Notes: a model not told the origin generated them from the letters alone. Positions 270 to 19,571 are shown, counted from the stretch's first letter. The stretch: DNA of 64,000 nucleotides from an uncultured Gemmatimonadales bacterium (GCA_947259405.1 CAMYLY010000009.1:18020-82019), one strand, 5' to 3'. Numbers and translations: made by a program.

Positions 270-414
270 GTTTCACACGCGTTAGGAGCTGACAGACACG
301 GGCGGTTTTGACGGAAGGCGTTGCTATGGGCGCAACCCAGCCTCATCGTTACGGTGGGGAAGCCACCCGCCCTGCGGGCGGGTTGTTTGCAGCTCAAACG
401 CAGGGACGTTAGGC
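270..414 (+). mobile_element. attC-like recombination site (complete, degenerate R'')
   Basis: R'' GTTTCAC 270-276; L'' GCGTTAGGAGCTG pairs with L' CAGCTCAAACGC with an extra G; internal hairpin ACCCGCCC-TGC-GGGCGGGT; R' GTTAGGC 408-414 just before the next gene. Confidence 0.75.
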
Positions 415-443
415 GGCTGCCGGAAGAATTGGAGCAAGCGACT

Positions 444-1094
444 ATGCTCTCGCCCGTTGAGGCACGTCGAGTCTACGATCGAATCGGATCGCTTCAGGAT
501 TCTCAGGCGTTCTACGAAGATCGCGCTACCGAGTTGCTTCTGCGCAACGGGGCCTTCGGATCGGCGGAGGCCGTGTTCGAGTTTGGCTGCGGGACCGGGC
601 GCTTTGCGCTGCGGCTATTCACGGAGTGCCTTCAGCCGGAGGCCCGGTATCGTGGAGTAGACGTGAGTCCGAAGATGGTCCATCTGGCACGGCAGCGCCT
701 TGCCCGGTACTCGGCCCGCGCCGCGGTGCTCCTTACCGAGGGTGGCCCTCCCGTCGGCGAGGCAGAGGGCTCCTGTGATCGCTTCCTCTCCAATTACGTC
801 TTCGACCTGCTCTCGGAAGAGGACATCCGATCGACCTTGCGAGAAGCTCGGCGTATGCTCCGTCCGGACGGCTTGGTGTGCCTCACAGGCCTTTCGACGG
901 GTGTTGGTCCGCTTTCACGGGCGGTGGCCGGGGTGTTGAGCTGGGTTCAGGTTCATCGACCATCCGCGGTTGGCGGTTGCAGGCCCATCGATCTGCTACC
1001 CTTCCTACGTGGATCCGACTGGGATGTTCGCTTCCACCAGAAAGTGGTAGCGTTCACCATCACGTCGGAGGCACTTGTCGCCCAACGGTGCTGA
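444..1094 (+). CDS. Class I SAM-dependent methyltransferase (gene cassette)
   Basis: VFEFGCGTG motif I, GVDVSPKM motif II; bounded by GTTAGGC (408) and GCCTAAC (1105). Confidence 0.85.
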   Translation: MLSPVEARRVYDRIGSLQDSQAFYEDRATELLLRNGAFGSAEAVFEFGCGTGRFALRLFTECLQPEARYRGVDVSPKMVHLARQRLARYSARAAVLLTEGGPPVGEAEGSCDRFLSNYVFDLLSEEDIRSTLREARRMLRPDGLVCLTGLSTGVGPLSRAVAGVLSWVQVHRPSAVGGCRPIDLLPFLRGSDWDVRFHQKVVAFTITSEALVAQRC

Positions 1095-1104
1095 TCGGTC
1101 AGCC

Positions 1105-1135
1105 GCCTAACAGGCAAATGGACTTGGCGAGCGTC
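1105..1135 (+). mobile_element. attC left half (R'' GCCTAAC); right half missing
   Basis: GCCTAAC 10 nt after the stop, complementary to GTTAGGC at 408. Confidence 0.6.
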
Positions 1136-1270
1136 GCACGTATTGTAAGGAATACACAGCATACTCGCTTTCCCCTTCGGAGTCTTACAGGATCGCGATT
1201 TGCGGGTGCGCGTGCGCATTCCTATCGTTCAACGCGACACCGGCGCACACCCTCAAAAGCGGGAGGCTCC

Positions 1271-1747
1271 ATGCGTTCTCACATTCTCGTGACGGTCTTT
1301 CTCGTTGGCTGTGCTGGAGGGACGTCCTTCCCGGCCGTTGATGTCGAAGCGGACAAGGCCGCCATCCGTGCCCAGATCGCCGATGCCGTCGCAGCTCACA
1401 ATGCGGCTGATGCCGAGGCGTGGGCGAACGTATCGGCAGAGGACATCGTTTTCATGGTCGACGGCGGCCCGAGCATCTCCGGGCGTGCCGCGATAACCGA
1501 CTGGATCAGAGAGTTCTACGCGGCCAACAGAGTGTCGGACATGACAGCGGAAGCTCTGGAGATCGAGATTGCAGGTGACTGGGCGTATTCGCGAGACCAC
1601 GTCTCCGCTATGCTCACCCCCCCTGCTGGTGGCGAGCCGGTGCGTCTGGACGTGAAAGAAATCGTGATTTGGCGGCGGCAGGCTGACGGAACGTGGCGTG
1701 CTTGGCGGAGCATCTTCAATTCCAATACTCCGCCCGAGGTCCCGTAG
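1271..1747 (+). CDS. SnoaL/NTF2-like (DUF4440, YybH-type) lipoprotein
   Basis: GGAGG RBS, lipobox LVGC, GDWAY and WRRQADGTWR motifs. Confidence 0.8.
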   Translation: MRSHILVTVFLVGCAGGTSFPAVDVEADKAAIRAQIADAVAAHNAADAEAWANVSAEDIVFMVDGGPSISGRAAITDWIREFYAANRVSDMTAEALEIEIAGDWAYSRDHVSAMLTPPAGGEPVRLDVKEIVIWRRQADGTWRAWRSIFNSNTPPEVP

Positions 1748-1929
1748 CTGTAACCGGAGCGCCCAGGCACGGCGAACCGTCTCTCAGATCCGTCGCGCTC
1801 TTTCGTCTCGAGAAGGCATGCGGTGCGTCCCGGTGGGCAGGCCGACGTCGCTGGGCATGTGGCGTCCCACGGGTGTATGGTTGCTTGCCGGCGATTGTGC
1901 ACGTTTAAGTCAACCATAGCAGCCTGCGG

Positions 1930-1979
1930 CTGCCCGCCTGGTGGCGGGTCGCCCGCTGGTGATTCGCAGGGCGTTAGAT
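1930..1979 (+). mobile_element. attC right half (R' GTTAGAT)
   Basis: CCCGCC..GGCGGG hairpin then CGCAGGGCGTTAGAT, same layout as 365-414; lies 14 nt before the ATG at 1993. Confidence 0.6.
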
Positions 1980-1992
1980 AGACGAGCGACAT

Positions 1993-2241
1993 ATGGCTGG
2001 TGTTAAGCGAGTAGACTTGGGACCGCGGGGCAAGGCGGTCACGTGGGTTGCAGCCGTCGTCTTGGCAATTGGCGCCGTCGTAGCGGCTGTGCTCCGCTCT
2101 TGGGTCGGTGCCGGCGCGGCGGTCTTCCTGGCTGCGCTATTTAGGTACGTCGGCTGGCTCGGCGTTCACAAGGCCGATGGCGAGCCACACCGATCGTTCC
2201 GTCATAGCGACGGCGATCACGACGCCACCGAATCTGGGTAG
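1993..2241 (+). CDS. Small hypothetical membrane protein (cassette)
   Basis: 82 aa, two hydrophobic helices, flanked by attC-like sites. Confidence 0.6.
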   Translation: MAGVKRVDLGPRGKAVTWVAAVVLAIGAVVAAVLRSWVGAGAAVFLAALFRYVGWLGVHKADGEPHRSFRHSDGDHDATESG

Positions 2242-2258
2242 TGGGTTCCGCTGTTGCT

Positions 2259-2319
2259 GCCTAACAAGGACCTGAAAGCTTGCGGCGTGGCCGCGCAACA
2301 GAATCGCGTGACGTTAGGC
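2259..2319 (+). mobile_element. Short attC-like site (61 bp)
   Basis: GCCTAAC 2259-2265 and GTTAGGC 2313-2319 are perfectly complementary; imperfect inner stem TTGCGGC/GCCGCGCAA. Confidence 0.75.
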
Positions 2320-2341
2320 GGACAAGACCGAAGAGCGACTG

Positions 2342-2938
2342 ATGACACCTGATCGCAAACCGTCGTGGATCCTCGTCCCGCTGGGGCTGCTGGGTGGCCT
2401 GGCCCTCATCGTTTTCATTTCTCTCGTCGCGTATCGGCCAGACCGTCCTGTCGCCACGATCGTCCCGGGATCTTCGTCGGGCCCGGCGTTCGTGGTGCAG
2501 ATCATCCGGCCGCGCCTCGGCCTGCCGCTCGGCGGGATCCTTCCGCCACAGCTCTTTGGGCTCGAGGCGCACTTGGGGTTCGACTCGCAGAGCGCTGGCG
2601 CCTCCATCGGCAGCGTCGACCCCAGGCGCATCGCGCTCGGTGCCGACAACTGGGAGCTGGTCCTCGTTCTCGACGGCGACGGGCGGGTGTCGACCGAGAC
2701 CCGGGTGGCCTTCGAACTCATGTTCGAGGGGCGCCTCATTGGTATGCAGTGCCAGCCCGCCGATCCGGCCATCGGCACCCTGACCGTCAGTGCGCTGGCT
2801 GAGACAGGAGAACTCAGCGGCCGCTTCGACATCGAGGTCCGCAACTGCGAGAATGCCGAGACGGGAGAGCCCCTTACTTGGCCGACGACGCCCCTCGTCC
2901 TCCACGGAAGCTTCGACCGGCTCCCGCTCAACAACTGA
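2342..2938 (+). CDS. Hypothetical protein with N-terminal membrane anchor
   Basis: 198-aa ORF directly after an attC R'; N-terminal TM helix, beta-rich body. Confidence 0.7.
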   Translation: MTPDRKPSWILVPLGLLGGLALIVFISLVAYRPDRPVATIVPGSSSGPAFVVQIIRPRLGLPLGGILPPQLFGLEAHLGFDSQSAGASIGSVDPRRIALGADNWELVLVLDGDGRVSTETRVAFELMFEGRLIGMQCQPADPAIGTLTVSALAETGELSGRFDIEVRNCENAETGEPLTWPTTPLVLHGSFDRLPLNN

Positions 2939-3102
2939 GCGAAGCGACGCCGAGCCTCTGGCGAGCAGCCTTTGCACCGAGCGGCGAGTAGTCAGCTTTA
3001 CCGGTAGCCTAGTGCTAGGTGGATTCTTCCTCACACCGGGCACCGCCTGACACACTGCGGATCTGGTGTCCGCGTTTCTTCACAAGAAAGGGTGTGATTG
3101 AA

Positions 3103-3576
3103 ATGAAGCCGATTGTTCCCGTGCTGGTCGCTCTCGTCCTGGTCAACTCCGCACCGGTATCGGCGCAGAGTTCCACTACGCCGCGGGATAGGGACGCGGA
3201 ACAGGAAATACTGGATCTTTCGAGGATGAAGTGGCGCTGGATGGCAGAGCAAAACGCGGACACGCTTGCTGCACTGTTCCACGAAAAGGCGCGATTTGTC
3301 CACATGAGCGGCACCTGGGGGACGGCCGCGGAGATCGAGATAATCAGAAGCGGGAGCATCCACTACAAGCACGCCGATGTCCACGAAGTTGTCGTAGAAG
3401 TTATTGACGACACTGCCATCCTGTGGAACCGCATTACTCTCGTGGCTGTGGTGCGAGGCAATGAGGTAACGAACCAGTTTACGGTTACCGAGGTCTACAA
3501 GAGGCAAGCGGATGGGTGGAAGATGTTGGCCATGACGTTTAGCAGCGTGCGAAGCGAGCATCGCATTGAGCGCTAA
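3103..3576 (+). CDS. Secreted NTF2-like/DUF4440 protein
   Basis: Signal peptide MKPIVPVLVALVLVNSAPVSA; C-terminal TEVYKRQADGWK motif. Confidence 0.8.
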   Translation: MKPIVPVLVALVLVNSAPVSAQSSTTPRDRDAEQEILDLSRMKWRWMAEQNADTLAALFHEKARFVHMSGTWGTAAEIEIIRSGSIHYKHADVHEVVVEVIDDTAILWNRITLVAVVRGNEVTNQFTVTEVYKRQADGWKMLAMTFSSVRSEHRIER

Positions 3577-3671
3577 GGGTTGTCAGCTCTTGCCCATCGT
3601 GGTCGTTGCCGATGGCTTGCTCAGGTCGTCGCGCCCGAGTCGCCGCAGTGGCTTGCATCGTGCTGGTGACC

Positions 3672-3703
3672 CTGTCGCCGCCTAACGCACGTTAGGCGGA
3701 CAG
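3672..3703 (+). mobile_element. Collapsed attC: R'' and R' separated by only 4 nt
   Basis: CTGTCGCCGCCTAAC-GCAC-GTTAGGCGGACAG; GCCTAAC 3680-3686, GTTAGGC 3691-3697. Confidence 0.7.
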
Positions 3704-3713
3704 CTCCGAACCC

Positions 3714-4136
3714 ATGAGCAAGATCTTCTTCTACGGCCTGTTCATGGATCGGTCTCTTCTCACTGAGAAGGGTCTTCACCCAGAGATTATCGGGTCAGCA
3801 GTGCTACCCGACTACCGCATCCACATCGGCGAGCGAGCAACATTGCTGCGATCCGCTTCGAGTCGCGCCTATGGAATCGTGATGGAGCTCGCCGACCATG
3901 AAGCTCGCGCGCTCTACTCGGAACCGAGTGTTCGCGAGTACATACGAGAACGTGTACGGGTGGAGCTGTTGGACACAAGCGAAGCTGTCGAGGCGTACTG
4001 CTACAACCTGCCGCACGAGTTGGGCCTAGCCGGGGCGAATCCCGCGTACGCGACCGAGCTATCACAGTTGGTTGAGACGCTGCAGTTCGATTCAGCATAC
4101 GTGGAAGAAATCGCTGCGTTTGGCAAGGTGTCGTAG
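3714..4136 (+). CDS. Gamma-glutamylcyclotransferase family protein
   Basis: N-terminal IFFYGLFMD (FxYGx motif), 140 aa. Confidence 0.8.
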   Translation: MSKIFFYGLFMDRSLLTEKGLHPEIIGSAVLPDYRIHIGERATLLRSASSRAYGIVMELADHEARALYSEPSVREYIRERVRVELLDTSEAVEAYCYNLPHELGLAGANPAYATELSQLVETLQFDSAYVEEIAAFGKVS

Positions 4137-4182
4137 TTTCGTATCTGCGGCCCCTCGAGAACCTCAAATGGTGGAGAAGTCG

Positions 4183-4293
4183 ATGAGGCGACCTTCTGCC
4201 CGATCCGTTTGGATGACCCTCGCACTGGCCGGGTGTGCCGACGAGGACGCACCGTATCTTGAGGAAGTCGTCGATACGAGCAGCAGGTATTGA
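4183..4293 (+). pseudogene. N-terminal lipoprotein fragment
   Basis: GGAG RBS then MRRPSARSVWMTLALAGC (lipobox LAGC), stopping 18 aa later. Confidence 0.4.
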
Positions 4294-4385
4294 TATGAGT
4301 GCCACACTAGTGCCACTGAACCACAACCTGCGGGGTTCTTCACAGCGAAATGCGCCCGCACTTTGGAACCGTGAGGACGAGGCAA

Positions 4386-4904
4386 ATGAATGGGAAAAAT
4401 GAAACCGGTTGCTGTCCACGATTCAACCCTGCGCGATGGGACGACCAAGAGATCAGTTGGCAAGACAAGCTCTTCGTACGAGACCGGGTACGGAGCCTGT
4501 TTCACGTGCCTCTGAACTTCGGCCGTGTGATGCAGAGGAACATGCAGGGTATCGAGGCTGCGGGCGCCTTGGATCCTGACCATCTGATGCTCAGCGACGA
4601 GAACTCCCTCTGGGGTGCCGACGTGTACATCGCTGTGTCAAAGGAAATTCCGGGCGCACAGATGGAACGCATTTCCGGTGTCTTCTTCACCAAAGCCTTC
4701 GAGGGGCCGTACAGCAAGGCGAGACAGTGGGCCAAAGAGGTGACGACCCTCATGGAACAACGGGGTCGCCCGCCGAAGAACCTGTATTTTTGGTATACCA
4801 CGTGTCCAAGGTGCGCCAAGGCCTATGGCGAGAACTACGTTGTCCTGGTTGCCGAGCACGCGACAGACGCTCCACCACCATGCGCACAGGCAGACAATGG
4901 CTAG
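4386..4904 (+). CDS. Conserved protein annotated as hydrolase (GyrI-like fold)
   Basis: TGCCPRFNP..WD, FEGPY and YTTCPRCAKAYGENYVV motifs of a conserved family. Confidence 0.75.
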   Translation: MNGKNETGCCPRFNPARWDDQEISWQDKLFVRDRVRSLFHVPLNFGRVMQRNMQGIEAAGALDPDHLMLSDENSLWGADVYIAVSKEIPGAQMERISGVFFTKAFEGPYSKARQWAKEVTTLMEQRGRPPKNLYFWYTTCPRCAKAYGENYVVLVAEHATDAPPPCAQADNG

Positions 4905-5316
4905 CCTACCAGATCCAACCGATCCCATCCGTCAGAAGGCGGTCACGTACCCTGGTGTTGCGAAGGGAACCTCTTGTACCCAAAGCTCGTTTAAGGCCGG
5001 GTCCGGTACCTTCCTGTTCATCGGCCCAGGGCCAAGGGGCCAAGGATTCAAAGCGATGTTCAAGCTGAGACGGTCGATGCCGCAAGCGGAGAAGCTTGCG
5101 GCAAAGGATCCGAGCCGATTTGAGATTGGTTCGACGGGATGGGTCACCACGCGTTTCACGAAGGAGCAGCCGCTTCCCAAAACCATTTGGCAAAAGTGGT
5201 TGGAGGAATCCTACGAAGTCACGTACGGCCCCAAGGCGGCCACCAGTAAGCGTGAAGCCGGAGCAACCCAACGCCAGCGTGCCCGGCACAAGGGGAAACC
5301 CAAGTCAAAGCAGTAA
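4897..5316 (+). CDS. MmcQ/YjbR-like protein
   Basis: GSTGWVT and WLEESY motifs; overlaps the upstream gene by 8 nt. Confidence 0.6.
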   Translation: MASLPDPTDPIRQKAVTYPGVAKGTSCTQSSFKAGSGTFLFIGPGPRGQGFKAMFKLRRSMPQAEKLAAKDPSRFEIGSTGWVTTRFTKEQPLPKTIWQKWLEESYEVTYGPKAATSKREAGATQRQRARHKGKPKSKQ

Positions 5317-5386
5317 GCCGACAAGCGCTTAATGTTGATGGGAGTGAGGAATGCGTCGCATGGCGCGCAGTCGGTGCGCACCCGCG

Positions 5387-7093
5387 TTACGGGAACAAAC
5401 GACGGAAGGCCTCGCGTTGGTGCGCGCTGCCGACGGCGACCAGCGCTGACCCCCTTGCCAGACGCTGATCAGGCCTCGGGTGCGTCACGACCCCACCGTC
5501 CGTCTGGAGTGCGATGACGTTGAGACCGGTGCGCCCGCCCACGTCGGCGTCGCCCAGTGTCTGGCCATCCAGCGTATCCGGGCAAGGCACATAGAACAAG
5601 TCGACGCTCTCACCCATGATGATCAGTTCACGTCCCTGCACGATCGAGAACACCGCCTGCACGCCGAGAAACGCATAGCTCAGCACGAAGTCGGCGCCGG
5701 CCCGATGAATCGCTTCGACGTTGCGCTCGTGCGTGACGCGCGTCAGGATGCGCGCGTCAGGATTGAGCCGCCGGCAATAGACGGTCAAATAGACGTTCAT
5801 CGCGTCATCGTGCGTGGTGAGCAGAATGGTCGGCGCCTCGGCGATGCCGGCTCGGTCGAGTACCGTCCGGTCTGCTGCGTCACCGACGATGAAGCGGTTC
5901 GGGACACCGAGGCTCTTGTCTTCGAGTTCGGGGTTCCGTTCGACGATATTGACGGGGACGCCACGAGCGTGGAGCGCGCGAGCCGCCGAGCGTCCCACCT
6001 TGCCGCCCCCAACGATCAACACCGGGTTGGGATTGGCGTCGTAGATGACGAGCACCTCGTTCAGCTCGTCGATCTGCTCTTCCGTACCGATCACGACAGG
6101 CACGGAGAGAGGCGACAGCGTGAAATCTGGGGCCGCCGGCTGAAACCGGCCGCGTTCCCACACACCCACGATCGTCACCCCCGTGAATTCGCGCAGACTC
6201 GTTTCCTGAATGGTCTTGCCCTGGAGCGGCGTGTTGTGGACCGGAAACTCCGCAAGCACCAAATCGTGGAACTTGCCGATCCGGTTGGCCTGCGCTGAGC
6301 CGGCACTCACGCGGTTCGCAAGATGCTCGCCGAGCTGCCGCTTGAGCGGCAGCACGTGCGTGGCCCCGCTGAGCTCTAGCACATCGATCGAATCGTCAGA
6401 GTCGGCAAGCGCCACGACGGCGACGGAGTCGGATAGCTCCCGCAGCGTGAGGACGATGTTGGAATTGACCGTATCCGAGTCGTTCGCCAACACCAGACGG
6501 GAGCTGGCGGCGCGAGCCGCCTTGTACGTTTCCACTGCGTCAATCTCGCCAATCACGACGGGCAGGTCGGCGTCCTCCATCCGCATCGCGAGCTCGGGGT
6601 CTGCCTCGATCAGGTACGTTGGAACACCCGCTAATTCGAGCCGCTGCAGCAGCCCGAGCGCGATCGGGTCGTTCGCACAGATCAAGACATGACCCGAAAT
6701 CTCCGCTGGTACGGCTTGCAGCCCTTTGATGCGTGACCGGCTCCGTTGTTCGAGCCACGGCGCGTACACGATCCTGATGAAGAGGAACGGCAGAATGACG
6801 AGCAGGAGGATGACCCCAGTGATCAGGACGATCGAGCTGAAGAGGCGTCCGAGATCCGACTCGAACGTGATGTCACCAAAGCCCAGGGTGCTCATCACTG
6901 TCAACGCCCAGTAGACGCCTGTGAACCAGGAATGATTCTGGCCCTCCCACGCCATGATGACGTGAAACAGCCAGCCGTACACCAAGACCACCGCGACGAG
7001 GAGGACGACGTAGCGGCCGAAGGGAACCAGCCGCCTCCGGACTCCGGCACCACCCTCGAGCAGTGTGGCGAGGTGAGATCCGACGGTCTTCAT
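5387..7093 (-). CDS. Potassium channel with tandem RCK (TrkA-N/TrkA-C) domains
   Basis: TVMSTLGFGDI selectivity filter, two TM helices, IVGGGKVG Rossmann motif; start placed at MKTVG. Confidence 0.9.
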   Translation of the reverse strand: MKTVGSHLATLLEGGAGVRRRLVPFGRYVVLLVAVVLVYGWLFHVIMAWEGQNHSWFTGVYWALTVMSTLGFGDITFESDLGRLFSSIVLITGVILLLVILPFLFIRIVYAPWLEQRSRSRIKGLQAVPAEISGHVLICANDPIALGLLQRLELAGVPTYLIEADPELAMRMEDADLPVVIGEIDAVETYKAARAASSRLVLANDSDTVNSNIVLTLRELSDSVAVVALADSDDSIDVLELSGATHVLPLKRQLGEHLANRVSAGSAQANRIGKFHDLVLAEFPVHNTPLQGKTIQETSLREFTGVTIVGVWERGRFQPAAPDFTLSPLSVPVVIGTEEQIDELNEVLVIYDANPNPVLIVGGGKVGRSAARALHARGVPVNIVERNPELEDKSLGVPNRFIVGDAADRTVLDRAGIAEAPTILLTTHDDAMNVYLTVYCRRLNPDARILTRVTHERNVEAIHRAGADFVLSYAFLGVQAVFSIVQGRELIIMGESVDLFYVPCPDTLDGQTLGDADVGGRTGLNVIALQTDGGVVTHPRPDQRLARGSALVAVGSAHQREAFRRLFP

Positions 7094-7307
7094 GGCTCTT
7101 AGTCTAACGCCGGGAGTTGGAACTGGACACGGGTTGAGCGCCGGAGCACCCTCATGGCGGTAATGCGGTCGGCCAGAACTCAGCGTGAGGTGAATGGTCA
7201 CCGCTCCGCTGGTCAGTCCCTTAGCGCGTCGCTTGGGCCTGTGGACCACGCAGCAGAATTCGCGAGACGTTCGACGGCATGCGACATTGGAACTGGAGGG
7301 CACCACT

Positions 7308-7757
7308 TTGCAGCCGACCATCGTTACCTGGGTACTCATCGTATTTGGTGCGATTACCTTGGCACCACTTGTATTGGCCCAAGTCGTCATGCTAACAAAG
7401 CCGCATAGTCAACAGGCAAAAGACATCCTGGTCGCGAAAGGTGAAGACTGGCGAGACAAGACGCACTTTCGATCCGCTCTGGGGTTCGCCTGGGCGGATT
7501 GGCTGCTTGTTGTCCCATTGGTGATTTCGGGAAGCATCGGTGTGATTCTTGGGCATGCCTGGGGTTATGTCCTTTGGGGTGCGGCTGGATCGATTTCTCT
7601 GTACATCAACATCGTGTTGTGGATCATGGAGAAGGAATACGTTTATCCTTCTCGTGGAGCGCTTGCCTACTACACCTACTATTGGGGTTTCTTTGTGTAT
7701 TGGGGGGCTCTTGCTTTAGCATACGCAGCCATGCGTCTCGGCGGCGTAGAACTCTAG
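7308..7757 (+). CDS. Hypothetical multi-pass membrane protein
   Basis: GGAGG RBS with TTG start; four hydrophobic helices; AT-richer than neighbours. Confidence 0.7.
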   Translation: MQPTIVTWVLIVFGAITLAPLVLAQVVMLTKPHSQQAKDILVAKGEDWRDKTHFRSALGFAWADWLLVVPLVISGSIGVILGHAWGYVLWGAAGSISLYINIVLWIMEKEYVYPSRGALAYYTYYWGFFVYWGALALAYAAMRLGGVEL

Positions 7758-7803
7758 ACCCGATATGGTGATGGCGGCAGACGAGTAGGAAGTAACTCGA
7801 TAG

Positions 7804-9801: not shown

Positions 9802-9802
9802 A

Positions 9803-11929: not shown

Positions 11930-12667
11930 TTAGACAGCCTCCCTTTCGAGTCGGCCCCGCGCCGCCTTCGCAAACAACACGGCCGATCCCACGAACAGCG
12001 CAACGAAGGCTCCGTTGATCGCGATGATCTCAAATGGCCCGCTGTACGGGGCACCCAACCGCCCGACCAGCGCGATCACGGCAACTAACGTCTGAGCGAG
12101 CGCCGTCGCGAACAACGCGCGCGCCATTCCTTCGGGTTTGAGCCGCGCGATGATGGCACCGATCGCTCCGACAAGGAGCACCCCGCCATACATGAGGTTG
12201 GCGTTGTTGTTCTCGGATCCGATGATGCCGACGGCTCCGTTCACCCACACGAGGAGCACCGCTGCGCCGAGCGCAAGACCAATGGCGGTTCGGTACGCGG
12301 CGTTCAGGGTCGTCCTGGATACCAGCTCAACAGTGATACCAATGCCGATGAGCAGGGCCCCGGTCTGCGCAAGAGTGCCGATCCAGTTCGGTTCACCCAC
12401 GAACTGCTTTGCCACCAGCGCGGTCACTAGCATGAGCGCTCCGGCGGCCCAGCACGCTAGCCCCCAGCGACTCCACGCCGGCCCGTCACTTTTTGCTCCG
12501 TTTCCTCCCATGGTCTGCACCTCCGATACCATGTCCTTGTTCGTCGTGCGGGAGAGTGCTCTGACACTCGCAACGGCGCCGCCGAGCATGAAGCCGAACT
12601 CCAGGAACCGAGAGATCGATGCCTGTCCGGGCGTGTGCTTGTTCATTGCTTCCTCATGCCGCATCAC
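11930..12667 (-). CDS. Hypothetical multi-pass membrane protein
   Basis: AYRTAIGLALGAAVLLVWVNGAVGIIGSENNNANLMY region; TAA stop lies inside a minus-strand GTCTAAC (R''-like). Confidence 0.75.
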   Translation of the reverse strand: MMRHEEAMNKHTPGQASISRFLEFGFMLGGAVASVRALSRTTNKDMVSEVQTMGGNGAKSDGPAWSRWGLACWAAGALMLVTALVAKQFVGEPNWIGTLAQTGALLIGIGITVELVSRTTLNAAYRTAIGLALGAAVLLVWVNGAVGIIGSENNNANLMYGGVLLVGAIGAIIARLKPEGMARALFATALAQTLVAVIALVGRLGAPYSGPFEIIAINGAFVALFVGSAVLFAKAARGRLEREAV

Positions 12668-14074
12668 TCACTGCCTCCTAAGAATCATGTGCGCGCCCGG
12701 CATACTAAACCGTAGCTCCGTCACCTCTCCACTGTCGCCGTTCGCTCGGCGGAAGATGAACCGCGGGAGTCCGGCGCCGAACGTCAAACCCTCGATCCAG
12801 GGGATCGGACGCGACGGCCTACCGTCGATGGAGAAGGCGGGTCCCTGCGGTGTCTCCGTCACCTCGACGACCATCTCTTCACCCCGTCCCGGCCCGACAT
12901 ACCGGCCTACGAGCGGTGCGGGGTCGCCGGTGAATCGCTTGGGCGGCGGCGGCGTCCGGCCAAGCACCTCGTTGGCGAGGTTGGTCACCACTTCCTGCGG
13001 ATCGAGCGGGCCGACGTTGTTGATCATGACGACGACCCCCATCTGCGCCTCCGGATACCAACCCACCTCGACCCAGAAGCCAGGGGCCCTGCCGCCGTGG
13101 CCGATGTACATGAGGCCGCTGGGGTCCGGACCCACCTGAAGGCCCATGCCATAACGGAGCGGCGTCCCATCGTTCAGCCTTCCGGGCGCGATGAACTCCG
13201 TGTAGGACGCGGGTGAAAGTACGCGGCCGCCGTGGAGGGCCTGGAGCCAGGTGACCATATCGCCCACGCTCGAGCACAGCGAACCGGCGGCGAAGGGCCA
13301 GGTATGCCAGATAGTCCACGCGCGGCGGATGACACTGTCGCGCGTGACGAAGTAGCCATGCGCGCGGCGCGGGATGTTCTCCTCGCTGTGGCAGTACATC
13401 GACCGCGTCATGCCCAGCGGTTCGAAGATGTGCTGCTCGATGTAGTCCTCGTACGTCATCCCGCTCGCCTTTTCGATGACGAGCCCCAGGAGCCAGAACC
13501 CCGCGTTGTTGTAGATCTGCATCCCGCCCGGCGCGAACTGCGGAGGTTGCCGCTGTTGCAGTGCATACGCGGAATCGCGGGGGAAGCGGATGTTCGTCGA
13601 CAGGCTGCCGAACTCCCGCGCCTCCGTGAAGTCGCCGATCCCTGCCGTGTGCGCGAGCAGGTGGCGCAGCGTCACCGCGTGACCGTGTGTGTCGAAGTCG
13701 GGGAGCCACTCGGTGATGTCGTCGTCCAGGCTGAGCTTCCCCTCGTCGCGGAGCTGGAGCACGGCCGCGCCAGTGAACTGCTTGGTGACCGAGCCGATCA
13801 CGAACATGGCATCGAGCGGCATCGGGACGTCCCACTCGACGTCGGCCCGGCCATAGGATTTGTGGAGTAGCGTTTCGTCGCCTTTGACCACCGCCGCGAC
13901 GATGCCGACGGCGTAGTTCCTCTGGACCCAGTGCCCGGCGATGGAATCGAGCCGCTGGGCGAGGGCTGAGTCCGTTTGCGCGGCCGCTTGGGTGGCCGCG
14001 ATGGAGACGAGGGCAACGGTGCCGAGGAAGAAGCGGAGACCGGGCCGCGCGAGCGCGGGATGAAGGAGCGACAC
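12668..14074 (-). CDS. Serine hydrolase, beta-lactamase/PBP-like (class C-like peptidase)
   Basis: SVTK (SxxK), YNN (YxN), HGG triad, LLAHTAG; signal peptide; AAGGAG RBS before the GTG at 14074. Confidence 0.9.
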   Translation of the reverse strand: MSLLHPALARPGLRFFLGTVALVSIAATQAAAQTDSALAQRLDSIAGHWVQRNYAVGIVAAVVKGDETLLHKSYGRADVEWDVPMPLDAMFVIGSVTKQFTGAAVLQLRDEGKLSLDDDITEWLPDFDTHGHAVTLRHLLAHTAGIGDFTEAREFGSLSTNIRFPRDSAYALQQRQPPQFAPGGMQIYNNAGFWLLGLVIEKASGMTYEDYIEQHIFEPLGMTRSMYCHSEENIPRRAHGYFVTRDSVIRRAWTIWHTWPFAAGSLCSSVGDMVTWLQALHGGRVLSPASYTEFIAPGRLNDGTPLRYGMGLQVGPDPSGLMYIGHGGRAPGFWVEVGWYPEAQMGVVVMINNVGPLDPQEVVTNLANEVLGRTPPPPKRFTGDPAPLVGRYVGPGRGEEMVVEVTETPQGPAFSIDGRPSRPIPWIEGLTFGAGLPRFIFRRANGDSGEVTELRFSMPGAHMILRRQ

Positions 14075-14110
14075 GGGATTGAACTCCTTGACAAGGCAGC
14101 TGTATGAGTA

Positions 14111-14135
14111 CAGAGTACTTTGTAACGCAAAGCTT
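14111..14135. promoter_or_regulatory. Putative palindromic operator ACTTTG-N5-CAAAG
   Basis: AGTACTTTGTAACGCAAAGC about 45 bp upstream of the serine hydrolase start, in an AT-rich patch. Confidence 0.5.
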
Positions 14136-14421
14136 AGCAACCCTGGCCTAGGAGCCGCTGCTCGGCCGCGGTGCGATCACAAGATCCTCGGCACAGGTAT
14201 ACAATCGCCATCCTGCCACGACCCAGCTCCCGCTCGATGGCGTAGCGGTCGGAGAGAGCTTAGCTGAGACGATCGCTGATATCAGTCACCGGTACCACCC
14301 AACGTTATTCCGGCGTTGAAACGCCGGCTCGGCGCTGCGCGACGCGTTCTGAAGAACGTCGTCACCGAGTTGCCCTTCAGCGCACGTCGGCGCGAAAGCG
14401 CCCCCGAGCCTGGCTTTCAGG

Positions 14422-14508
14422 TCAGGAACATCGACTGATGGCTACTTGTCGGTGGAGTCTAAGGTCGTCGGCGAGGGCGGTCTTGAGGCGAGCAACGGTA
14501 TCGCTCAT
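14422..14508 (-). pseudogene. N-terminal stub of a Ser/Thr kinase gene
   Basis: MSDTVARLKTALAD resembles the pre-kinase helix that precedes the Gly-rich loop (compare VRSALDDEYRIERLLGRGG in the 23095 kinase), then unrelated sequence and a stop. Confidence 0.6.
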
Positions 14509-14576
14509 GAGATCCTAACCTAGGCTCCAATCGTTCTGTTGGCGAGACGAAGGAAGATGTAGCGGGGGAGCAGGGA

Positions 14577-15731
14577 TCAGACGATTTCTCCCCTCCACAG
14601 TCGTTTCACAAAGGCCTTGGCTGGTAGGATTTCGATGCCGTCATCCGTCTTACGTGACTTGCGTTCGCTGCAGACTACTATTCGCCGAGCCACACGTGGA
14701 TGATCCACTGCCAGGCTACGCAGTCCCTTGAGATGGTCCCGCGTGATCTTCGCGCTCGACTTCGCTTCTATCGCCGCCTCCATATCGCCCAACACGAAGT
14801 CCACCTCAATGCCACTGGCAAGTCGCCAGTATGATAGAGCCGTGTCGTGCCCGCGGTAGCTCCCATAGGCTGTGAGCTCGTGGAACACCCAGTTCTCGAA
14901 CGCCTTGCCATAGAGCTCGGAACCGGGTTGCAGCTCCCCCCGCCGCGCCAACCGATTCACGACCCCGACATCGACGAAGTAGAACTTGGGCGCACCGATG
15001 ACGCGGCGTTTGGGTCGTTTGCGGTACGCCGGCAGCCACCTCCCGAGCAGCGTGTCTTCCAGAATCTCAAAGTGGTTCTTGGTCGTGTGGCTCGACACAC
15101 CGCACTCGCGGGCGAGGTTGGAGAAGTTGACGATCTCACAATCACTGAGCGCCGCAACATCCAGGAAGTCTGAGAACGTCGGGAGATTGCGCACCAGCCC
15201 TTCGGCGGCGACTTCCTCCTTCAGGTAACCGGCGATGTACGCATCGAGCAATCGCTTTGGCCGATTCGACTCATAGATGCGTGGCAGGTAGCCATGATTC
15301 AACATCCGATCGAGAGCGAAGTCGCCGCCGAGCTCGGCCGCTGTCAGTCCATGCAACTCATAGCGCACGGCGCGACCGCCCAACAGATTGGCGGCGCCAC
15401 GTTTCACCTTGCGGGCGCTCGAGCCGCAAAGTGCGAAGTGAAGGCCGCGATTCTCCAGCAGCCAATGCACTTCATCTAGCAGCGCGGGGACCTTCTGAAT
15501 CTCGTCAATGACAATCTGACGCCCAGGATCGAGTGGTTCTGCCTCGATCTCCTGACGCAGCAGCTCGGGCCGAGCCACGTAACGGCGGAACTCCTCCGCC
15601 TTTAAGAGATCCACCCAACGGGCGTCACCGTAGGTCTGCCTCAACAGGGTAGTCTTACCAGTCTGCCGAGGACCCCAGAGGAAAAAGGTCTCGACTCCTG
15701 ACGCCGGGAGGACCAAGCTCCGATTGAACAT
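14577..15731 (-). CDS. AAA+ ATPase with DUF4143 (AAA_14-DUF4143)
   Basis: GPRQTGKT Walker A, IDEIQK Walker B, GSS, LLGGRA, PKFYFVDVG, C-terminal EVDFV...IEAK PD-(D/E)XK-like motif; start MFNRSL. Confidence 0.92.
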   Translation of the reverse strand: MFNRSLVLPASGVETFFLWGPRQTGKTTLLRQTYGDARWVDLLKAEEFRRYVARPELLRQEIEAEPLDPGRQIVIDEIQKVPALLDEVHWLLENRGLHFALCGSSARKVKRGAANLLGGRAVRYELHGLTAAELGGDFALDRMLNHGYLPRIYESNRPKRLLDAYIAGYLKEEVAAEGLVRNLPTFSDFLDVAALSDCEIVNFSNLARECGVSSHTTKNHFEILEDTLLGRWLPAYRKRPKRRVIGAPKFYFVDVGVVNRLARRGELQPGSELYGKAFENWVFHELTAYGSYRGHDTALSYWRLASGIEVDFVLGDMEAAIEAKSSAKITRDHLKGLRSLAVDHPRVARRIVVCSERKSRKTDDGIEILPAKAFVKRLWRGEIV

Positions 15732-15734
15732 GTA

Positions 15735-15760
15735 GTTCAATATATCATGATAACTTGAAC
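15735..15760. promoter_or_regulatory. 26-bp near-perfect palindrome abutting the ATPase start codon
   Basis: GTTCAA-TA-TATCATGATA-AC-TTGAAC, 3 nt from the ATG at 15731. Confidence 0.65.
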
Positions 15761-15780
15761 CGTCAACTCGTATTGGGGGA

Positions 15781-16008
15781 AAGGGCCACGACTCCTGGGT
15801 ACCCGAGCACAAGCCTGGCGTCGGCGTATCGATCTGTTTCATATGCCGCGACGCGGTGGCCCTCTATCGCGAGTTCATCGCTCGCGGCGTTGCGGTGAAG
15901 CGCCCCTTTGTTGGCAACGGCATGTGGGTGGCTTCTCTCGAGGATCCGGACGGCTACGAGCTGCAGAGCCCGACGGACGCGCCGGAAGAGAGCCAGTACG
16001 AGGAGTAA
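15781..16008 (+). pseudogene. C-terminal half of a VOC/glyoxalase family gene
   Basis: KGHDSWVPEHKPGVGVSICFICRDAVALYREF...PFVGNGMWVASLEDPDGYEL; no N-terminal half; followed by GCCTAAC at 16058. Confidence 0.75.
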
Positions 16009-16112
16009 AAGCTGGACTGGCCTTGGTGCCCACCATATCGCTCTTGACTTGCGTGCAGCCTAACACCGGCCGATTGTGAGCAGACTGTTCCGATCTTTGC
16101 ACACGCGTTTCG

Positions 16113-16613
16113 TTGACCATGAGGACAGCCATGAACCGTTTAGGCATTGTCGTGCACACCGTGCTGTTGCTCTCCCTGACACTAGACAGTGTCCAAGCCC
16201 AAGGAACACTCATGACTCAAACCGCAAAAGGAACATTTGTCGTCTCCTTGCAGCCCATGGCGTTTGAAGGTGTCGACCCCGAGGTCAAGCTTGGCCGAAT
16301 GTCAATTGACAAACAGATCTCCGGCGACCTCACAGCGCGCACAAACGGTCAGATGCTCAGCGCCATGACACGCACCGATGGGTCCGCCGGCTACGTGGCA
16401 ATCGAGTGGGTGGCCGGTACGCTAAACGGAAAGCGAGGGACTTTCGTGCTGCAACACTCGGGCACCATGAACCGCGGGGTACCGTCCCTGTCGGTGACCG
16501 TCGTGCCGGACTCGGGCACTGAGGAATTGGTCGGACTCGAAGGCGAGTTCAAGATCAACATCGTAGACGGTGAACACTATTATGAGTTTACCTATCGGTT
16601 GCCTGCACCGTGA
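16113..16613 (+). CDS. DUF3224 domain protein
   Basis: GSAGYVAIEWVAGTLNGKRGTFVLQH and VVPDSGTEEL.GLEG signature; start uncertain. Confidence 0.9.
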   Translation: MTMRTAMNRLGIVVHTVLLLSLTLDSVQAQGTLMTQTAKGTFVVSLQPMAFEGVDPEVKLGRMSIDKQISGDLTARTNGQMLSAMTRTDGSAGYVAIEWVAGTLNGKRGTFVLQHSGTMNRGVPSLSVTVVPDSGTEELVGLEGEFKINIVDGEHYYEFTYRLPAP

Positions 16614-16685
16614 AGAGCGTGTGGTACTGCCCACGGTACGGCGGAGTCGAGCAGGGACTTTGACAGGTTGCATGAACCGGCTGTT

Positions 16686-16751
16686 GCCTAGCAAGCGCCG
16701 GCGGCGGACAGTCCGCTGCCCGGCCCATAGGTGACGCGCAAGTCGTAGGGC
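16686..16751 (+). mobile_element. Degenerate attC-like site
   Basis: GCCTAGC..GTAGGGC (each one change from consensus), inner stem GGCGGCGGAC/GTCCGCTGCC. Confidence 0.45.
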
Positions 16752-16773
16752 AGACTTGTGGATGAGAGGAGCG

Positions 16774-17265
16774 ATGCGAGAAATCCACCTCGACGCCTTC
16801 GATCAGAGCCTGCATTCCGACAGACTCCGCGGCTGGCTGCGCCGACCGCACGTTGCCAGGTGGTGGGGAGACGCGCAACAGGCGATGGCACACGCGGTGC
16901 AGTGCCGTCCGGACGCGCACGCGGTCATCGTCGTAGACGGAACGCCCGTAGGCTATCTCTGCTGGCAGACACCAAGTCCGGTGGAGCTTGCGGATGCCCG
17001 CCTCACTGACCTGCCGGAGGGGTTGGTGGATATCGACATCCTCATAGGCGAGCCGGAACTGCTTGGCCAGGGAGTTGGTTCGCAGGCCCTCAAGCTGCTG
17101 CTAGCCCAATTGCACACGGAGTCGTCGTTCGCATACGCCGGCTTGGGTATGTCGGTGTCGAACGTACGTGCCATCCGGGCCTGTGAGCGAGCGGGGTTTC
17201 GTCTGTTTCGGGAGTTCCAGCATCCGGAATGGGGTCAATGCCGGTACATGGTGGCAGATGTGTGA
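16774..17265 (+). CDS. GNAT N-acetyltransferase (Acetyltransf_8/AAC(6')-Ib-like fold)
   Basis: WLRRPHVARWWG, IDILIGEPELLGQGVG, NVRAIRACERAGF. Confidence 0.85.
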   Translation: MREIHLDAFDQSLHSDRLRGWLRRPHVARWWGDAQQAMAHAVQCRPDAHAVIVVDGTPVGYLCWQTPSPVELADARLTDLPEGLVDIDILIGEPELLGQGVGSQALKLLLAQLHTESSFAYAGLGMSVSNVRAIRACERAGFRLFREFQHPEWGQCRYMVADV

Positions 17266-17791
17266 GGCGTCGCGACATTCCCTGCGCATTGGCGCCCCAG
17301 CGCTGGTCGGACTGCTTGGTGCGGGATGCTGCGACGACTGCGATGGCTTCTTTGGCGAAACCTGGATCGTCGTCGATGCGACCACCGTTAACGGGGCGTC
17401 CGTCTCGGATGTCACGATTCGCGCCGATAGGCTGAGGACCATGGAGGGGTGGACGGACACGACGCGTGCAAACGGGCGGGCGGTTCTCCATCTTTTCACG
17501 GCGAATTTCCCCGACTCCGTACGGGTATCGGCTGACCCGCCGGCGGAGTTCACGATTCCTGAGTCCGTGGCCGTGAGGGCAGTCTATGGGGATTCCGTGA
17601 CTGTTGTGTTCACTCTCGAACCGCTGACCAGTATGGCCGGCTGGGTTACTTGGTTCTTTTGGCGGTCGGCTACGGCTGGTCCGAGTGAGTCCGTGCGGGC
17701 TTATGCGCTTTGCGTATGCAAGGTGATAGCGCCGCAGCTGAGGCGCAGAGCCGTTCGCCAGTCCAAAGGTGGCATCCATCAAATCGCGTGA
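17258..17791 (+). pseudogene. Probable lipoprotein remnant running into an attC right half
   Basis: LVGLLGAGC lipobox and beta-rich domain; 3' part overlaps GCAGCTGAGGCGCAGAGCCGTTCGCC (17734-17759). Confidence 0.4.
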
Positions 17792-18587
17792 CAGGCCTTT
17801 CCGATTAGACCCTATTCCCCGGTATCGGCGTTTCTCCATCGATGCCGGACGCCTCGGGCGTCGGAAACATGTCATCCACGGTCTCATAGAAGTCGATGTC
17901 ACCGACGCCAGGCGCGTCTTTCGTGCTTACCATGCCAAGACTGGAGAGAGGCCTTCCCTCACCGCTTTCATAATCTCTTGCCTCGCCAGGGCCATCGAAT
18001 CCAACGATCACCTTCACGCCTACAAGGATTGGCGCAACCGTCTTGTGATCTATGACGACGTCAATATCAACGTTCTTCTCGAAGGAACCATCGATGGAGT
18101 GACGGCACCGGTCCCACATCTCCTCAAGGGCGTCAACAAGAAGAGTTATCTCGACATCCACGCAGAAATTCGCAGTGCCCAAGCGAGTCCGAAGGACACA
18201 CCAGAGGCCGGGTTCATGCGGTGGTTCTTATGGCTGCCATGGATCCTCCGGCGACCCTTCTACTGGTTTGCCCTGAGGGTGCCCCGGCTCTCTCGCGAGA
18301 TCTCAACCCCAGTCTTGGTGACGGCAGTTGGGATGTTTGGCAGAGGACCCGGTTGGGGAATACCCATGGCGAATTTCACTCTCACGGTGACGCTCGGTGG
18401 CATCTCAGAGAAGCCCGCAGTGGTGAACGGAGAAATCACGCCACGAGAGCTCTTGGACATGACGATCTCTATCGACCACGACGTTGTCGATGGGGCACCC
18501 GCGGCACGGTTCGTCGGCCGCTTCCGCCAGTTGATCGAAGCGTCCGACGGACTTGATGAATTGCTTTCGGCGGTGCAACCCACTTGA
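17769..18587 (+). CDS. Stand-alone 2-oxoacid dehydrogenase E2-like acyltransferase catalytic domain
   Basis: IDHDVVDGAPAARF catalytic motif, EVDVT; no lipoyl or E3-binding domain. Confidence 0.9.
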   Translation: MASIKSRDRPFRLDPIPRYRRFSIDAGRLGRRKHVIHGLIEVDVTDARRVFRAYHAKTGERPSLTAFIISCLARAIESNDHLHAYKDWRNRLVIYDDVNINVLLEGTIDGVTAPVPHLLKGVNKKSYLDIHAEIRSAQASPKDTPEAGFMRWFLWLPWILRRPFYWFALRVPRLSREISTPVLVTAVGMFGRGPGWGIPMANFTLTVTLGGISEKPAVVNGEITPRELLDMTISIDHDVVDGAPAARFVGRFRQLIEASDGLDELLSAVQPT

Positions 18588-18604
18588 GGCGCGCCAATGA
18601 GGCC

Positions 18605-18693
18605 CGCTAACAACTTGCTGGAGCGGCCGCAGCCTCAGCGCGCTACCATGTCTGGCGCAGCTCTGCTGCACCGCTCAGCTCCGGCCGTTAGGC
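18605..18693 (+). mobile_element. attC site (89 bp, best preserved)
   Basis: R'' CGCTAAC; L'' GCTGGAGCGG pairs with L' CCGCTCAGC with the single extrahelical G; R' GTTAGGC 18687-18693. Confidence 0.85.
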
Positions 18694-18718
18694 GCCAGCA
18701 CCATCGACGCACCATTGG

Positions 18719-19408
18719 ATGAAGATGTCAGGCATCGGATTGCTGAATGAAAAACCACTGCACGCATCACTGAAGGCGTGGTGCGCACAACCGGGCGATC
18801 GATTTGAAGTGGCCGTTGATGGGTTTGTGATTGATATTGCCCGAGATGGTCTATTGCTAGAAATCCAGACCGGCAGTTTCGCGTCCATCAAGTCGAAGCT
18901 GACAACTCTGGTGCGTTCACATCAGGTACGATTGATATACCCGATAGCGTGCGAGAAATGGATTGTCAAACTGGCAAAGGCTGACGGTAGCGGTGGAGTC
19001 ACACGCCGTAAGTCGCCCAAGCGAGGACGGGAGGAGGATCTGTTCTGGGAAATGGTGAGTTTTCCACGGTTGCTGGCGAACCGCAACTTCTCGATAGCAG
19101 TATTGATGATTCGGGAAGAAGAGGTGAGACGGTATGAAGGGAAGCGGCAATGGCGAAGGAGAGGGTGGGTGACTGAGGAACGCCGGCTGGTGGAGGTCGT
19201 AGATCAGCGGTTGTTTGAGGAGCCGGCAGATTGGCTCGCGTTTCTTCCAGAGGGGCTGGAGTCATTTACGGCGAGCGAGCTGGCGGAAGCGATAGCGGTA
19301 CGGAAAGAACTGGCACAGAAGATAGCATATTGTCTACGAAAAGCAGACGTAATTCAGTTGGTTGGTAAGCAGGGACGAGCCAACCTGTACAGAGTGGCTC
19401 GCGCCTAA
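18719..19408 (+). CDS. Putative PD-(D/E)XK nuclease-fold protein (cassette)
   Basis: EKPLH..LK, FEV..DGFVIDI, LLEIQT; C-terminal wHTH-like FTASELAEAI; TAA stop inside GCCTAAC 19403-19409. Confidence 0.7.
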   Translation: MKMSGIGLLNEKPLHASLKAWCAQPGDRFEVAVDGFVIDIARDGLLLEIQTGSFASIKSKLTTLVRSHQVRLIYPIACEKWIVKLAKADGSGGVTRRKSPKRGREEDLFWEMVSFPRLLANRNFSIAVLMIREEEVRRYEGKRQWRRRGWVTEERRLVEVVDQRLFEEPADWLAFLPEGLESFTASELAEAIAVRKELAQKIAYCLRKADVIQLVGKQGRANLYRVARA

Positions 19409-19571
19409 CACAGTTTTCGGGCTCCTTTGTCAGATGAGTCGGAAGTCGTTCCGGCGGCGGAATGCCGAAGCGCATCAGAGGAGACAGACGTGACGCACTA
19501 CCTCATTTTGGGCACCGTGAAAAGTCACCCTCATGGGACACTTGGTTGGCCACGCACGGTCTGACAGAGCC

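Follow-up and report, generated by a model that had tools for sequence, protein, structure and literature searches.

A mostly decayed attC array in a Gemmatimonadales genome as the probable integrase-distal half of a chromosomal integron

Does a run of small genes separated by attC recombination sites, with no integron integrase gene beside it, stand on its own, or is it the far end of an integron whose integrase lies elsewhere in the same genome? The question is raised by a stretch of 64,000 nucleotides (the window, G000:C9:18020-82019) from an uncultured Gemmatimonadales bacterium, which starts 18 kb into contig C9 of a metagenome-assembled genome (MAG) of 29 contigs and 3.06 Mb, estimated to be 61% complete. 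Positions 1-19,409 of the window hold co-oriented small open reading frames (ORFs) with attC sites and attC remnants between them, and a sequence-only reading had described this part as a decaying integron cassette array free of integrase. In our view, window 1-19,409 is likely to be the half farther from the integrase in a chromosomal integron array that spans at least 37 kb and has mostly decayed attC sites; this judgement applies jointly to the distal position of the array, to the erosion of its sites and to the genome not being integrase-free. The locus is a known kind of element with a clear erosion series, and the kind itself is not surprising.

Cassettes are moved by the integron integrase IntI, which recombines the bottom strand of attC in its folded form, both for excision and for insertion. 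For this task it depends on base pairing between R'' and R' and between L'' and L', and on bases left unpaired in the arm formed by R'' and L''. As attC has no family in Rfam, two covariance models were built; the sole Rfam match in the window is a bacterial small signal recognition particle RNA at 40250-40349 on the minus strand (53 bits), in the ordinary core half of the window. The first model, R1, was made from nine attC sites of this genome, all outside the window (alignment A1), and is specific to this site family. It matched 84 sites in 92 intI loci of other genomes (E<=0.01, the E-values of both models being rough because their calibration was shortened). The best 64 of these 84 sites, none of them from this genome, make up the second model, R2 (alignment A2), which is generic enough for class 1 attCs. 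A scanner of our own, combining motif and fold, was too noisy and missed known sites, and it was dropped in favour of the covariance models. As a control, R2 recovered, on the cassette strand, all four attCs of an E. coli class 1 integron (aadA1 41.8, cmlA5 40.1, dfrA14 27.5 and arr-2 22.7 bits), as well as 27 sites that follow intI on plasmid 1 of Gemmatirosa kalamazoonensis.

Applied to the window, these models and inspection by eye gave the following sites and remnants:

270 to 414, plus strand: attC (R2 35.0 bits, E ~1e-6; R1 59.5 bits).
1105 to 1216, plus strand: left half of an attC, R'' and L'' (no R1 or R2 match; weak fold, -16.5 kcal/mol).
1887 to 1979, plus strand: loop, right arm and R' box (GTTAGAT) of an attC, left arm missing (R1 24.7 bits at 1832-1957).
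2259 to 2319, plus strand: R boxes and right arm of an attC (R2 17.2 bits, E 0.05; fold -9.8 kcal/mol).
3680 to 3697, plus strand: collapsed attC, GCCTAAC-N4-GTTAGGC, interior wholly missing (R2 14.6 bits, R boxes only).
4237 to 4346, plus strand: attC loop remnant (R1 24.2 bits, model positions 19-109 only).
11905 to 11935, plus strand: attC right end with R' box GTTAGAC (by eye, from comparison with C9:2481 and C9:4313 at their right ends).
16058 to 16064, plus strand: isolated R'' box GCCTAAC (7-mer only; no pairing partner, no R1 or R2 match).
16686 to 16751, plus strand: degenerate attC-like sequence, GCCTAGC...GTAGGGC (R1 8.7 bits, E 3.7, not significant; fold -13.9 kcal/mol).
17730 to 17759, plus strand: attC right half, L' CCGCAGCTGA and mutated R' GTTCGCC (by eye against the R2 consensus).
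18605 to 18693, plus strand: best-preserved attC (R2 33.1 bits, E ~3e-6; R1 28.4 bits).

Of the roughly 19 cassette boundaries to be expected in the window, only two reach E<1e-3 with R2, and both score within the range of the class 1 control. The standard for comparison comes from the 64 reference sites, in which the AAC of R'' is invariant (64/64) and the 5' arm of the cassette strand carries two single-base bulges six bases apart, the first a G in 56/64 and the second an A in 37/64. Both bulges and the L stem are present at 270-414 and 18605-18693. The former, of the same type as the intact site C9:4957-5092, has intact L boxes and bulges and a degenerate R'' (GTTTCAC, with CAC for the invariant AAC). 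The latter retains all invariant positions, has an unpaired G in the L'' arm and leaves the outer two R'' positions unpaired; on its sequence, it is the only window site that looks fully competent. The sequence-only reading had staked its case on a covariance model recognizing 18605-18693, which R2 does, and the extrahelical G that it saw there is real, only placed in the top-strand L'' arm and not between L'' and L'. It had also counted 2259-2319 as a third near-complete site. In this case R'' and R' are perfect and the left arm is unpaired with the right, and the site is not near-complete, because R2 aligns only its R boxes and a single additional pair, a 38-nt interior staying unmodelled. 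The L stem is absent at 2259-2319 and at 3680-3697. Complementary R''/R' boxes occur at 2259-2319, at 3680-3697, at 18605-18693 (inner 5/7 positions) and at seven upstream sites, and a single R box only is found at 1105, 16058 and 19403.

The unpaired base of the L'' arm is a G on the cassette (top) strand in 56/64 of the soil-type sites (A2 columns 17-18, 239). A top-strand G would put a C on the recombined bottom strand, so that the textbook 'extrahelical G of the bottom strand' misfits these sites. It was considered whether this is a peculiarity of the clade, and the idea was rejected: in the same E. coli integron the aadA1 attC has a C and the cmlA5 attC a G at this place (L114 817-876 and 2662-2731).

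Are these elements attC sites at all? Intergenic, G+C-rich, imperfect palindromes without a matching Rfam family could also be repetitive extragenic palindromic (REP)-like elements or terminators, an explanation that we regard as highly improbable for several reasons. A model trained only beside intI in other genomes finds them, and finds class 1 attCs too. Both alignments show covariation: in A1, 86.5% of the cells are paired and 13/26 pairs changed on both sides, which 0/500 shuffles reach; in A2, 91.5% of the cells are paired, with 19/26 pairs and 275 cells changed on both sides, and 0/500 shuffles reach either the pairing or the changed cells. The L''/L' stem is backed by compensatory changes in both. 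The genome, moreover, encodes IntI, as described below. In addition, the box 7-mers are strongly concentrated in the array. GCCTAAC or GTTAGGC was located at 408, 1105, 2259, 2313, 16058, 18687 and 19403, as first described, with further copies at 3680/3691. The window holds 11 copies of GCCTAAC on both strands against 2.68 expected (0/100 shuffles reach 11), 9/11 of them no further along than 19409. Of the 94 copies in the whole genome, 17 fall in C9:1-37,428 and 4 more in the 2.8-kb contig C26, giving a density of about 0.45 per kb in the array and 0.024 per kb elsewhere, an enrichment of about 19-fold. The motif is thus rare in the remaining genome and not, as would have told against the sequence-only reading, equally common at core gene ends.

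The placement of the boxes is likewise that of integron cassettes, in line with what had been proposed. R' boxes precede start codons by 13-29 nt (408, 1973, 2313, 3691, 18687), the mutated R' at 17753 ends 10 nt before a GTG start at 17769, and R'' boxes follow or span stop codons (1105, 2259, 19403). Two cassettes have complementary ends, GTTAGGC 408/GCCTAAC 1105 and 18687/19403, with the motifs located at all four places.

How far does the array extend? It covers C9:1-37,428, reaching the first base of the contig 18 kb upstream of the window, where C9:1-99 is the right part of an attC cut by the contig end. Seven R2 sites lie between C9:705 and 6921 (36.7-54.6 bits) and one at C9:15885-15980 (25.9 bits), and the window shares its site types with the proximal part of C9. 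Site quality falls with distance from the presumed integrase end, the best sites being nearest to the start of C9. Contig C26 is a further array fragment, in which 2472-2618 is a complete site and 1943-2012 and 1-33 are right parts; C9:30-88 has 98.3% identity over 59 nt to C26:1943-2001. At the other end, the array closes with a terminal R'' box at 19403-19409, identified as a 7-mer only, with no attC beyond it. Five tightly packed plus-strand ORFs at 19605-22877 were considered as fully eroded cassettes and left out, as they show no attC trace, and ordinary kinase and sigma-factor genes follow from window 23095 onward.

Within the window, attC sites are eroded in several different ways, as the sequence-only reading maintained: fragments match sites that are intact elsewhere, and at 2259 and 3680 only the R boxes are recognized. 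R2 gave no match at 1105, 1973, 16058, 16686, 17753 or 19403. Among the three left halves that had been listed, the one at 1105 is a real fragment of a type intact elsewhere in the array (1105-1133 has 96.6% identity to the left 29 nt of C26:2472-2618), its right arm and R' being mutated past recognition, and those at 16058 and 19403 are 7-mers only. Both right halves, 1973 and 17753, proved to be real fragments, the second by eye (17730-17759) and the first (1887-1979) by similarity to the loop and right arm of C9:5535-5679 (1887-1930, 44 nt, 100%; 1943-1971, 29 nt, 93% identity). The idea that 1105 and 1887-1979 are one attC split by an inserted ORF was rejected, because the two halves are of different site types and their arms do not pair. 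Positions 2291-2319 have 93% identity to the right end of C9:2481-2577, and 4256-4302, comprising the loop only, matches by blastn the loops of C9:3290 and C9:15886. Between 7194 and 11496 no attC scores with R2, and a degenerate one is seen by eye at 8364-8479. The collapsed site at 3680-3697 has a twin at C9:16397-16415; these two are the only bare TAAC/GTTA palindromes in this 3.06-Mb genome, and both lie within the array. Such bare R''-R' palindromes may be a recurrent deletion product of the attC hairpin. Bare R''-N(2-8)-R' palindromes were also observed in two other integron loci (L081 8001; L076 4772).

Part of this erosion could be an artefact, made up of chimeric sites (assembly across repeats or strain mixture) or of functional sites that diverge from the models. 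We consider this improbable. The MAG is indeed in 29 contigs that break at attC repeats, such as the one common to C9 and C26, 2259-2319 combines an R'' box with a right arm that belongs to a different site type, and R1 is specific to one site family. However, the changes AAC to CAC at 270-414 and GTT-AGG-C to GTT-CGC-C at 17753 are point changes and not assembly joins, R2 recovers class 1 attCs yet misses these boundaries with filters off, and the eroded stretches fold weakly.

Is the array then without an integrase? Searching the genome for intI, as had been suggested, revealed that 'integrase-free' fails genome-wide: an intact intI without internal stops lies at C6:414-1391 on the minus strand (415.9 bits against a TIGR02249 cut-off of 265), the single gene above the cut-off in the genome. 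The same search found no intI anywhere on C9, including the 18 kb upstream of the window. The C6 product is 53.3% identical to IntI1 and 60.1% to the IntI of Gemmatirosa. R147, K164, H270, R273, H296 and Y305, which we take to be the catalytic residues of IntI, are invariant in the alignment with these two, and the IntI-specific insertion is present around W220-F226. The host phylum is Gemmatimonadota, a little-studied phylum as had been stated, and the nearest intI relatives are in Gemmatimonadales and Gemmatimonadaceae genomes (57-69% identity).

The position of this gene is informative. Its 3' end faces the contig edge, 413 bp away, and a truncated hicA in opposite orientation lies in between; the neighbouring ORFs have no HicB family match. 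No attC or attI is found between intI and hicA, with no model match and no convincing fold (z -1.8). Beyond the 5' end of intI, C6 has the look of the core genome, with no array. In the order, intI above the cut-off occurs in 23 of 41 genomes, a set that includes the host and the unpublished G017, the latter without intI. Most arrays of these relatives have one layout: 78/84 R1 matches lie downstream of intI and co-oriented with it, 4 are classical divergent and 2 are upstream on the same strand, and 6/6 arrays fetched from near-complete relatives are downstream and co-oriented. Many contigs of relatives stop a few hundred bases past the 3' end of intI, as C6 does. Since the relatives' arrays are downstream and co-oriented, the reverse-complemented start of C6 and the start of C9 fit head to tail. 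On balance, we lean towards C6 and C9 being one integron split by assembly, probably with further cassettes such as those of C26 between them. Cury et al. 2016 (PMC4889954) warn that a single integron can come out of a draft assembly as 'an integron and several CALIN' (attC clusters with no integron integrase nearby). In practical terms this is a trap: the distal part of an integron looks integrase-free in draft genomes and in fixed windows.

Two further observations on integrases of the phylum can be added. The integron integrases of two species of one genus (L109 = G002:C64; L006) are only 56% identical, and both lie at a contig edge. In a complete Gemmatimonadota chromosome (L053, CP070823.1) an intI 61% identical to that of C6 has no R1 attC within 10 kb on either side, being either an integrase without cassettes or one whose sites are too divergent for R1.

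Several facts weigh against joining the window to the C6 integrase, or limit what can be concluded. No exact contig-end overlap provides a physical link for C6, C9 or C26, and no conserved synteny in relatives provides another; in G023 the core part of the window and intI are some 150 kb apart, and in other relatives they are on different contigs. For C6:1-1400, no public sequencing run is listed. With a MAG that is 61% complete, there may be a further intI or array. The preserved proximal sites and the window portion are separated by some 6.5 kb of native-looking genes (C9:7931-14477) and, even if the contigs are joined, the window sites are more than 4 kb from any intI. To these points are added the rough E-values noted above and the fact that loss of mobility is a prediction from the sequence. 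Finally, attCs occur elsewhere in the genome. A single attC (R2 42.2 bits) lies at C13:63735-63905 on the plus strand, between polyketide-cyclase-like and ADP-ribosylglycohydrolase genes, and two attCs at C7:28310-28415 and 29117-29180 on the minus strand flank one DUF998 cassette. Scattered CALINs are therefore a fact in this genome.

By the usual distance rule (at least two attC within 4 kb, no intI within 4 kb), C9:15885-15980 and 270-414, 2.3 kb apart, form a CALIN, and 18605-18693 stands alone; the window sites are thus formally CALIN-like. It could be, although we give it the smaller chance, that they are one or more true CALINs unconnected to the C6 intI, made of rearranged pieces of an old array or of insertions at secondary sites, with the C6 intI serving another, unassembled array. 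Apart from the isolated attCs on C13 and C7, the interleaving of native-looking genes with cassettes speaks for this possibility; the orthologues of one of them, a TrkA-type channel gene, in three relatives (G001, G003 and G004, 73-74% amino acid identity) have no attC at E<0.1 on the fetched contig pieces. Cury et al. 2016 (PMC4889954) name rearrangement and secondary-site insertion as origins of CALINs and place half of all reported CALINs in genomes encoding IntI, and the abstract of a preprint (10.1101/2022.09.11.507474) reports IntI-catalysed insertion of cassettes outside att sites. On the other hand, the array runs to the first base of its contig, inside an attC, with the best-scoring sites at that end; the only integron integrase found is at a contig edge in fitting orientation; and the site types of the window are the same as the proximal ones. 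These points favour the distal part of a split integron.

Comparison with known systems helps to place this putative split integron. The locus is like a CALIN, as treated in PMC4889954, in having attCs and cassettes with no intI within 4 kb in a genome that encodes IntI elsewhere. It differs in that the label may here stem from a draft assembly and interleaved native genes, and in that the window sites are far more decayed than those a detector would normally report, with only two scoring well across 19.4 kb. The Treponema integrons, named in PMC4889954, are resembled by the relatives' arrays, downstream of intI and co-oriented, and by the fitting orientations of C6 and C9, whereas here intI and array are on separate contigs and no attI is recognized. 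With large sedentary chromosomal integrons, such as those of G023 and of Gemmatirosa kalamazoonensis plasmid 1, the array has in common the attC architecture and small, mostly unknown cassettes. In G023, however, 40 kb hold 53 complete sites (47-72 bits), and in the Gemmatirosa plasmid 14 kb hold 27 sites (40-58 bits), against two in 19.4 kb in the window. G027 is intermediate, with scores that drop over 34 kb from 46.9 bits to 18; in general, arrays of the order range from pristine to sparse. R2 at E<1e-3 counts 11 attCs in C9 and C26 plus 3 on C13 and C7, below the more than 19 that Cury et al. 2016 ask of a sedentary chromosomal integron, with occurrence in every genome of the species as the alternative, and a lower bound because the assembly is incomplete.

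Eroded Xanthomonas integrons were reportedly described by Gillings and colleagues in 2005. Like them, the array is a chromosomal integron in which activity or sites decay and cassettes are left fixed; unlike it, the Xanthomonas system has an integrase that is repeatedly inactivated, while here intI is intact and the distal attCs are decayed. A recent preprint on Xanthomonas speaks of 'widespread erosion of integron activity' (bioRxiv 10.1101/2025.06.18.660453). Class 1 attCs (E. coli plasmid NZ_CP098228.1, L114) are scored by R2 as are the sites described here, and have the same layout of R'', L'' with two bulges six bases apart, loop, L' and R'. The sites here, though, are 89-147 nt long as opposed to 60-114 nt, and represent a few types that recur within the array. 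Integrons in Gemmatimonadota have already been reported (PMC8618304). As for cassette order, whose comparison in related genomes had been proposed, none is common with the three genomes of the same genus at the DNA level, down to ~65% identity, and only single genes match.

What does the array carry? The first 19,409 positions of the window have 18 plus-strand ORFs of 50-272 amino acids, with five reverse-strand genes interleaved. Co-oriented small ORFs, with R' before starts and R'' at or after stops, bear out the cassette anatomy that had been read from the sequence. The assigned features, with families from Pfam unless otherwise stated, are:

444 to 1094, plus strand: S-adenosylmethionine-dependent methyltransferase ORF (Methyltransf_12/25/11), bounded by GTTAGGC 408 and GCCTAAC 1105.
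1271 to 1747, plus strand: SnoaL/DUF4440-like ORF.
3103 to 3576, plus strand: DUF4440/SnoaL-like ORF (profile positions 2-107 of 107).
3714 to 4136, plus strand: GGACT-like ORF.
4386 to 4904, plus strand: Bact_hydrolase ORF; the attC loop remnant 4237-4346 lies between the GGACT-like ORF and this one.
5387 to 7093, minus strand: TrkA-type K+ channel gene, native-looking (codon score 0.275 per amino acid; G+C content at third codon positions, GC3, 0.79).
7194 to 11496, plus strand: five cassette-like ORFs (unknown, DUF1801, SnoaL, alpha/beta hydrolase, LigT).
9960 to 10676, minus strand: cyclase gene among the plus-strand ORFs of 7194-11496, with native codon usage.
11930 to 15731, minus strand: reverse block of an unknown 244-amino-acid gene, a beta-lactamase-fold serine hydrolase and an AAA_14/DUF4143 ATPase.
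16131 to 16613, plus strand: DUF3224 ORF (profile positions 1-126 of 126).
16774 to 17265, plus strand: GNAT acetyltransferase ORF.
17769 to 18587, plus strand: ORF with a 2-oxoacid_dh-type acyltransferase catalytic domain, GTG start (67.9 bits).
18719 to 19409, plus strand: last cassette ORF, no family (GC3 0.57), its TAA stop inside R'' 19403-19409.

SnoaL/DUF4440 cassettes recur, with three in the window and one upstream on C9, and the other cassette content comprises GNAT, glyoxalase, methyltransferase, alpha/beta hydrolases, DUF1428 and DUF3224. Homologues of the DUF3224 ORF are found in G001, G004, G005 and G007 (51-74% amino acid identity), with an attC nearby only in G007. Cassette ORFs have a codon usage atypical for the genome, with scores of 0.09-0.24 per amino acid (genome median 0.221) and GC3 of 0.57-0.82. 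Larger genes with native codon usage also lie inside the array, at C9:7931-14477 and at window 5387-7093, 9960-10676 and 11930-14074.

The reverse block 11930-15731 is bracketed by R' (11929-11935) and R'' (16058) in swapped order, and the R' box GTTAGAC contains the TAA stop of the minus-strand gene 11930-12664, the last stop codon of the block. Read on the minus strand, this would be ordinary cassette anatomy, which suggests that the block was inverted between an R' and an R'' box or was inserted in reverse. The 244-amino-acid gene has a homologue in G001 that follows three co-oriented attCs.

Some smaller features were noted beside these genes. Just upstream of the start codon of the TrkA gene, window 7102-7139 reads GTCTAAC-N24-GTTGAGC, and on the minus strand an R'-like GTTAGAC lies 8 nt before the ATG of this native-looking gene. 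At window 8268-8356 and 11690-11780 a CCGAAGCTTCGGCAYGGCGTAC-like unit of about 21 nt is repeated in tandem (3-6 copies), in both cases with a degenerate attC end about 100 nt later. The same units occur in the host's own C7:1081-1163 and, in the same genus, at G002:C64:1309-1389 (L109); in G002 the tandem element lies about 270 bp upstream of intI. Window 14182-14275, on the minus strand, has dozens of matches at 75-85% identity in nearly all genomes of the order. Its minus-strand reading is ...DRYAIERELGRGRMAIVYL..., with a stop before it, and it presumably represents the stranded start of a Ser/Thr kinase gene (protein-kinase domain); a tRNA was considered, and ARAGORN found none. At window 14303-14427 is a hairpin-rich repeat, with tandem-spaced copies in the same-genus genome G002 (C33, C44, C72) and also on the host's own C7.

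Taken as the distal half of an integron, window 1-19,409 would have been shaped as follows. Each small plus-strand ORF would once have been a mobile cassette ending in an attC, and nearly all sites would since have lost one of the requirements of IntI, whether by point changes in the R boxes, by loss of one arm, by collapse to R''-N4-R' or by survival of the loop only. Sites of this kind would no longer fold into a substrate, so that the eroded cassettes would in effect be frozen in place, and fixation into the chromosome by loss of hairpin arms is a reasonable inference. Native-looking reverse-strand genes would become interleaved with them, and at least one block, 11930-15731, would be inverted between R' and R'' boxes. 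A bolder proposal, which we put forward only tentatively, is that in an active integron the cassettes become ordinary chromosomal genes progressively, starting at the end away from the integrase, by a few repeatable routes of decay, namely arm loss, collapse to R''-N4-5-R' (two cases here, with others in at least one further integron locus) and R'-R'' inversion.

Most work on integrons has concerned their role in carrying resistance genes in Proteobacteria. To this, the locus adds a well-resolved case from Gemmatimonadota, with preserved attCs and every kind of wreck on one contig, and offers useful material on how cassettes lose mobility and become fixed genes. If the gradient and the routes of decay recur across Gemmatimonadota arrays, they would provide a measurable 'clock' of cassette domestication.

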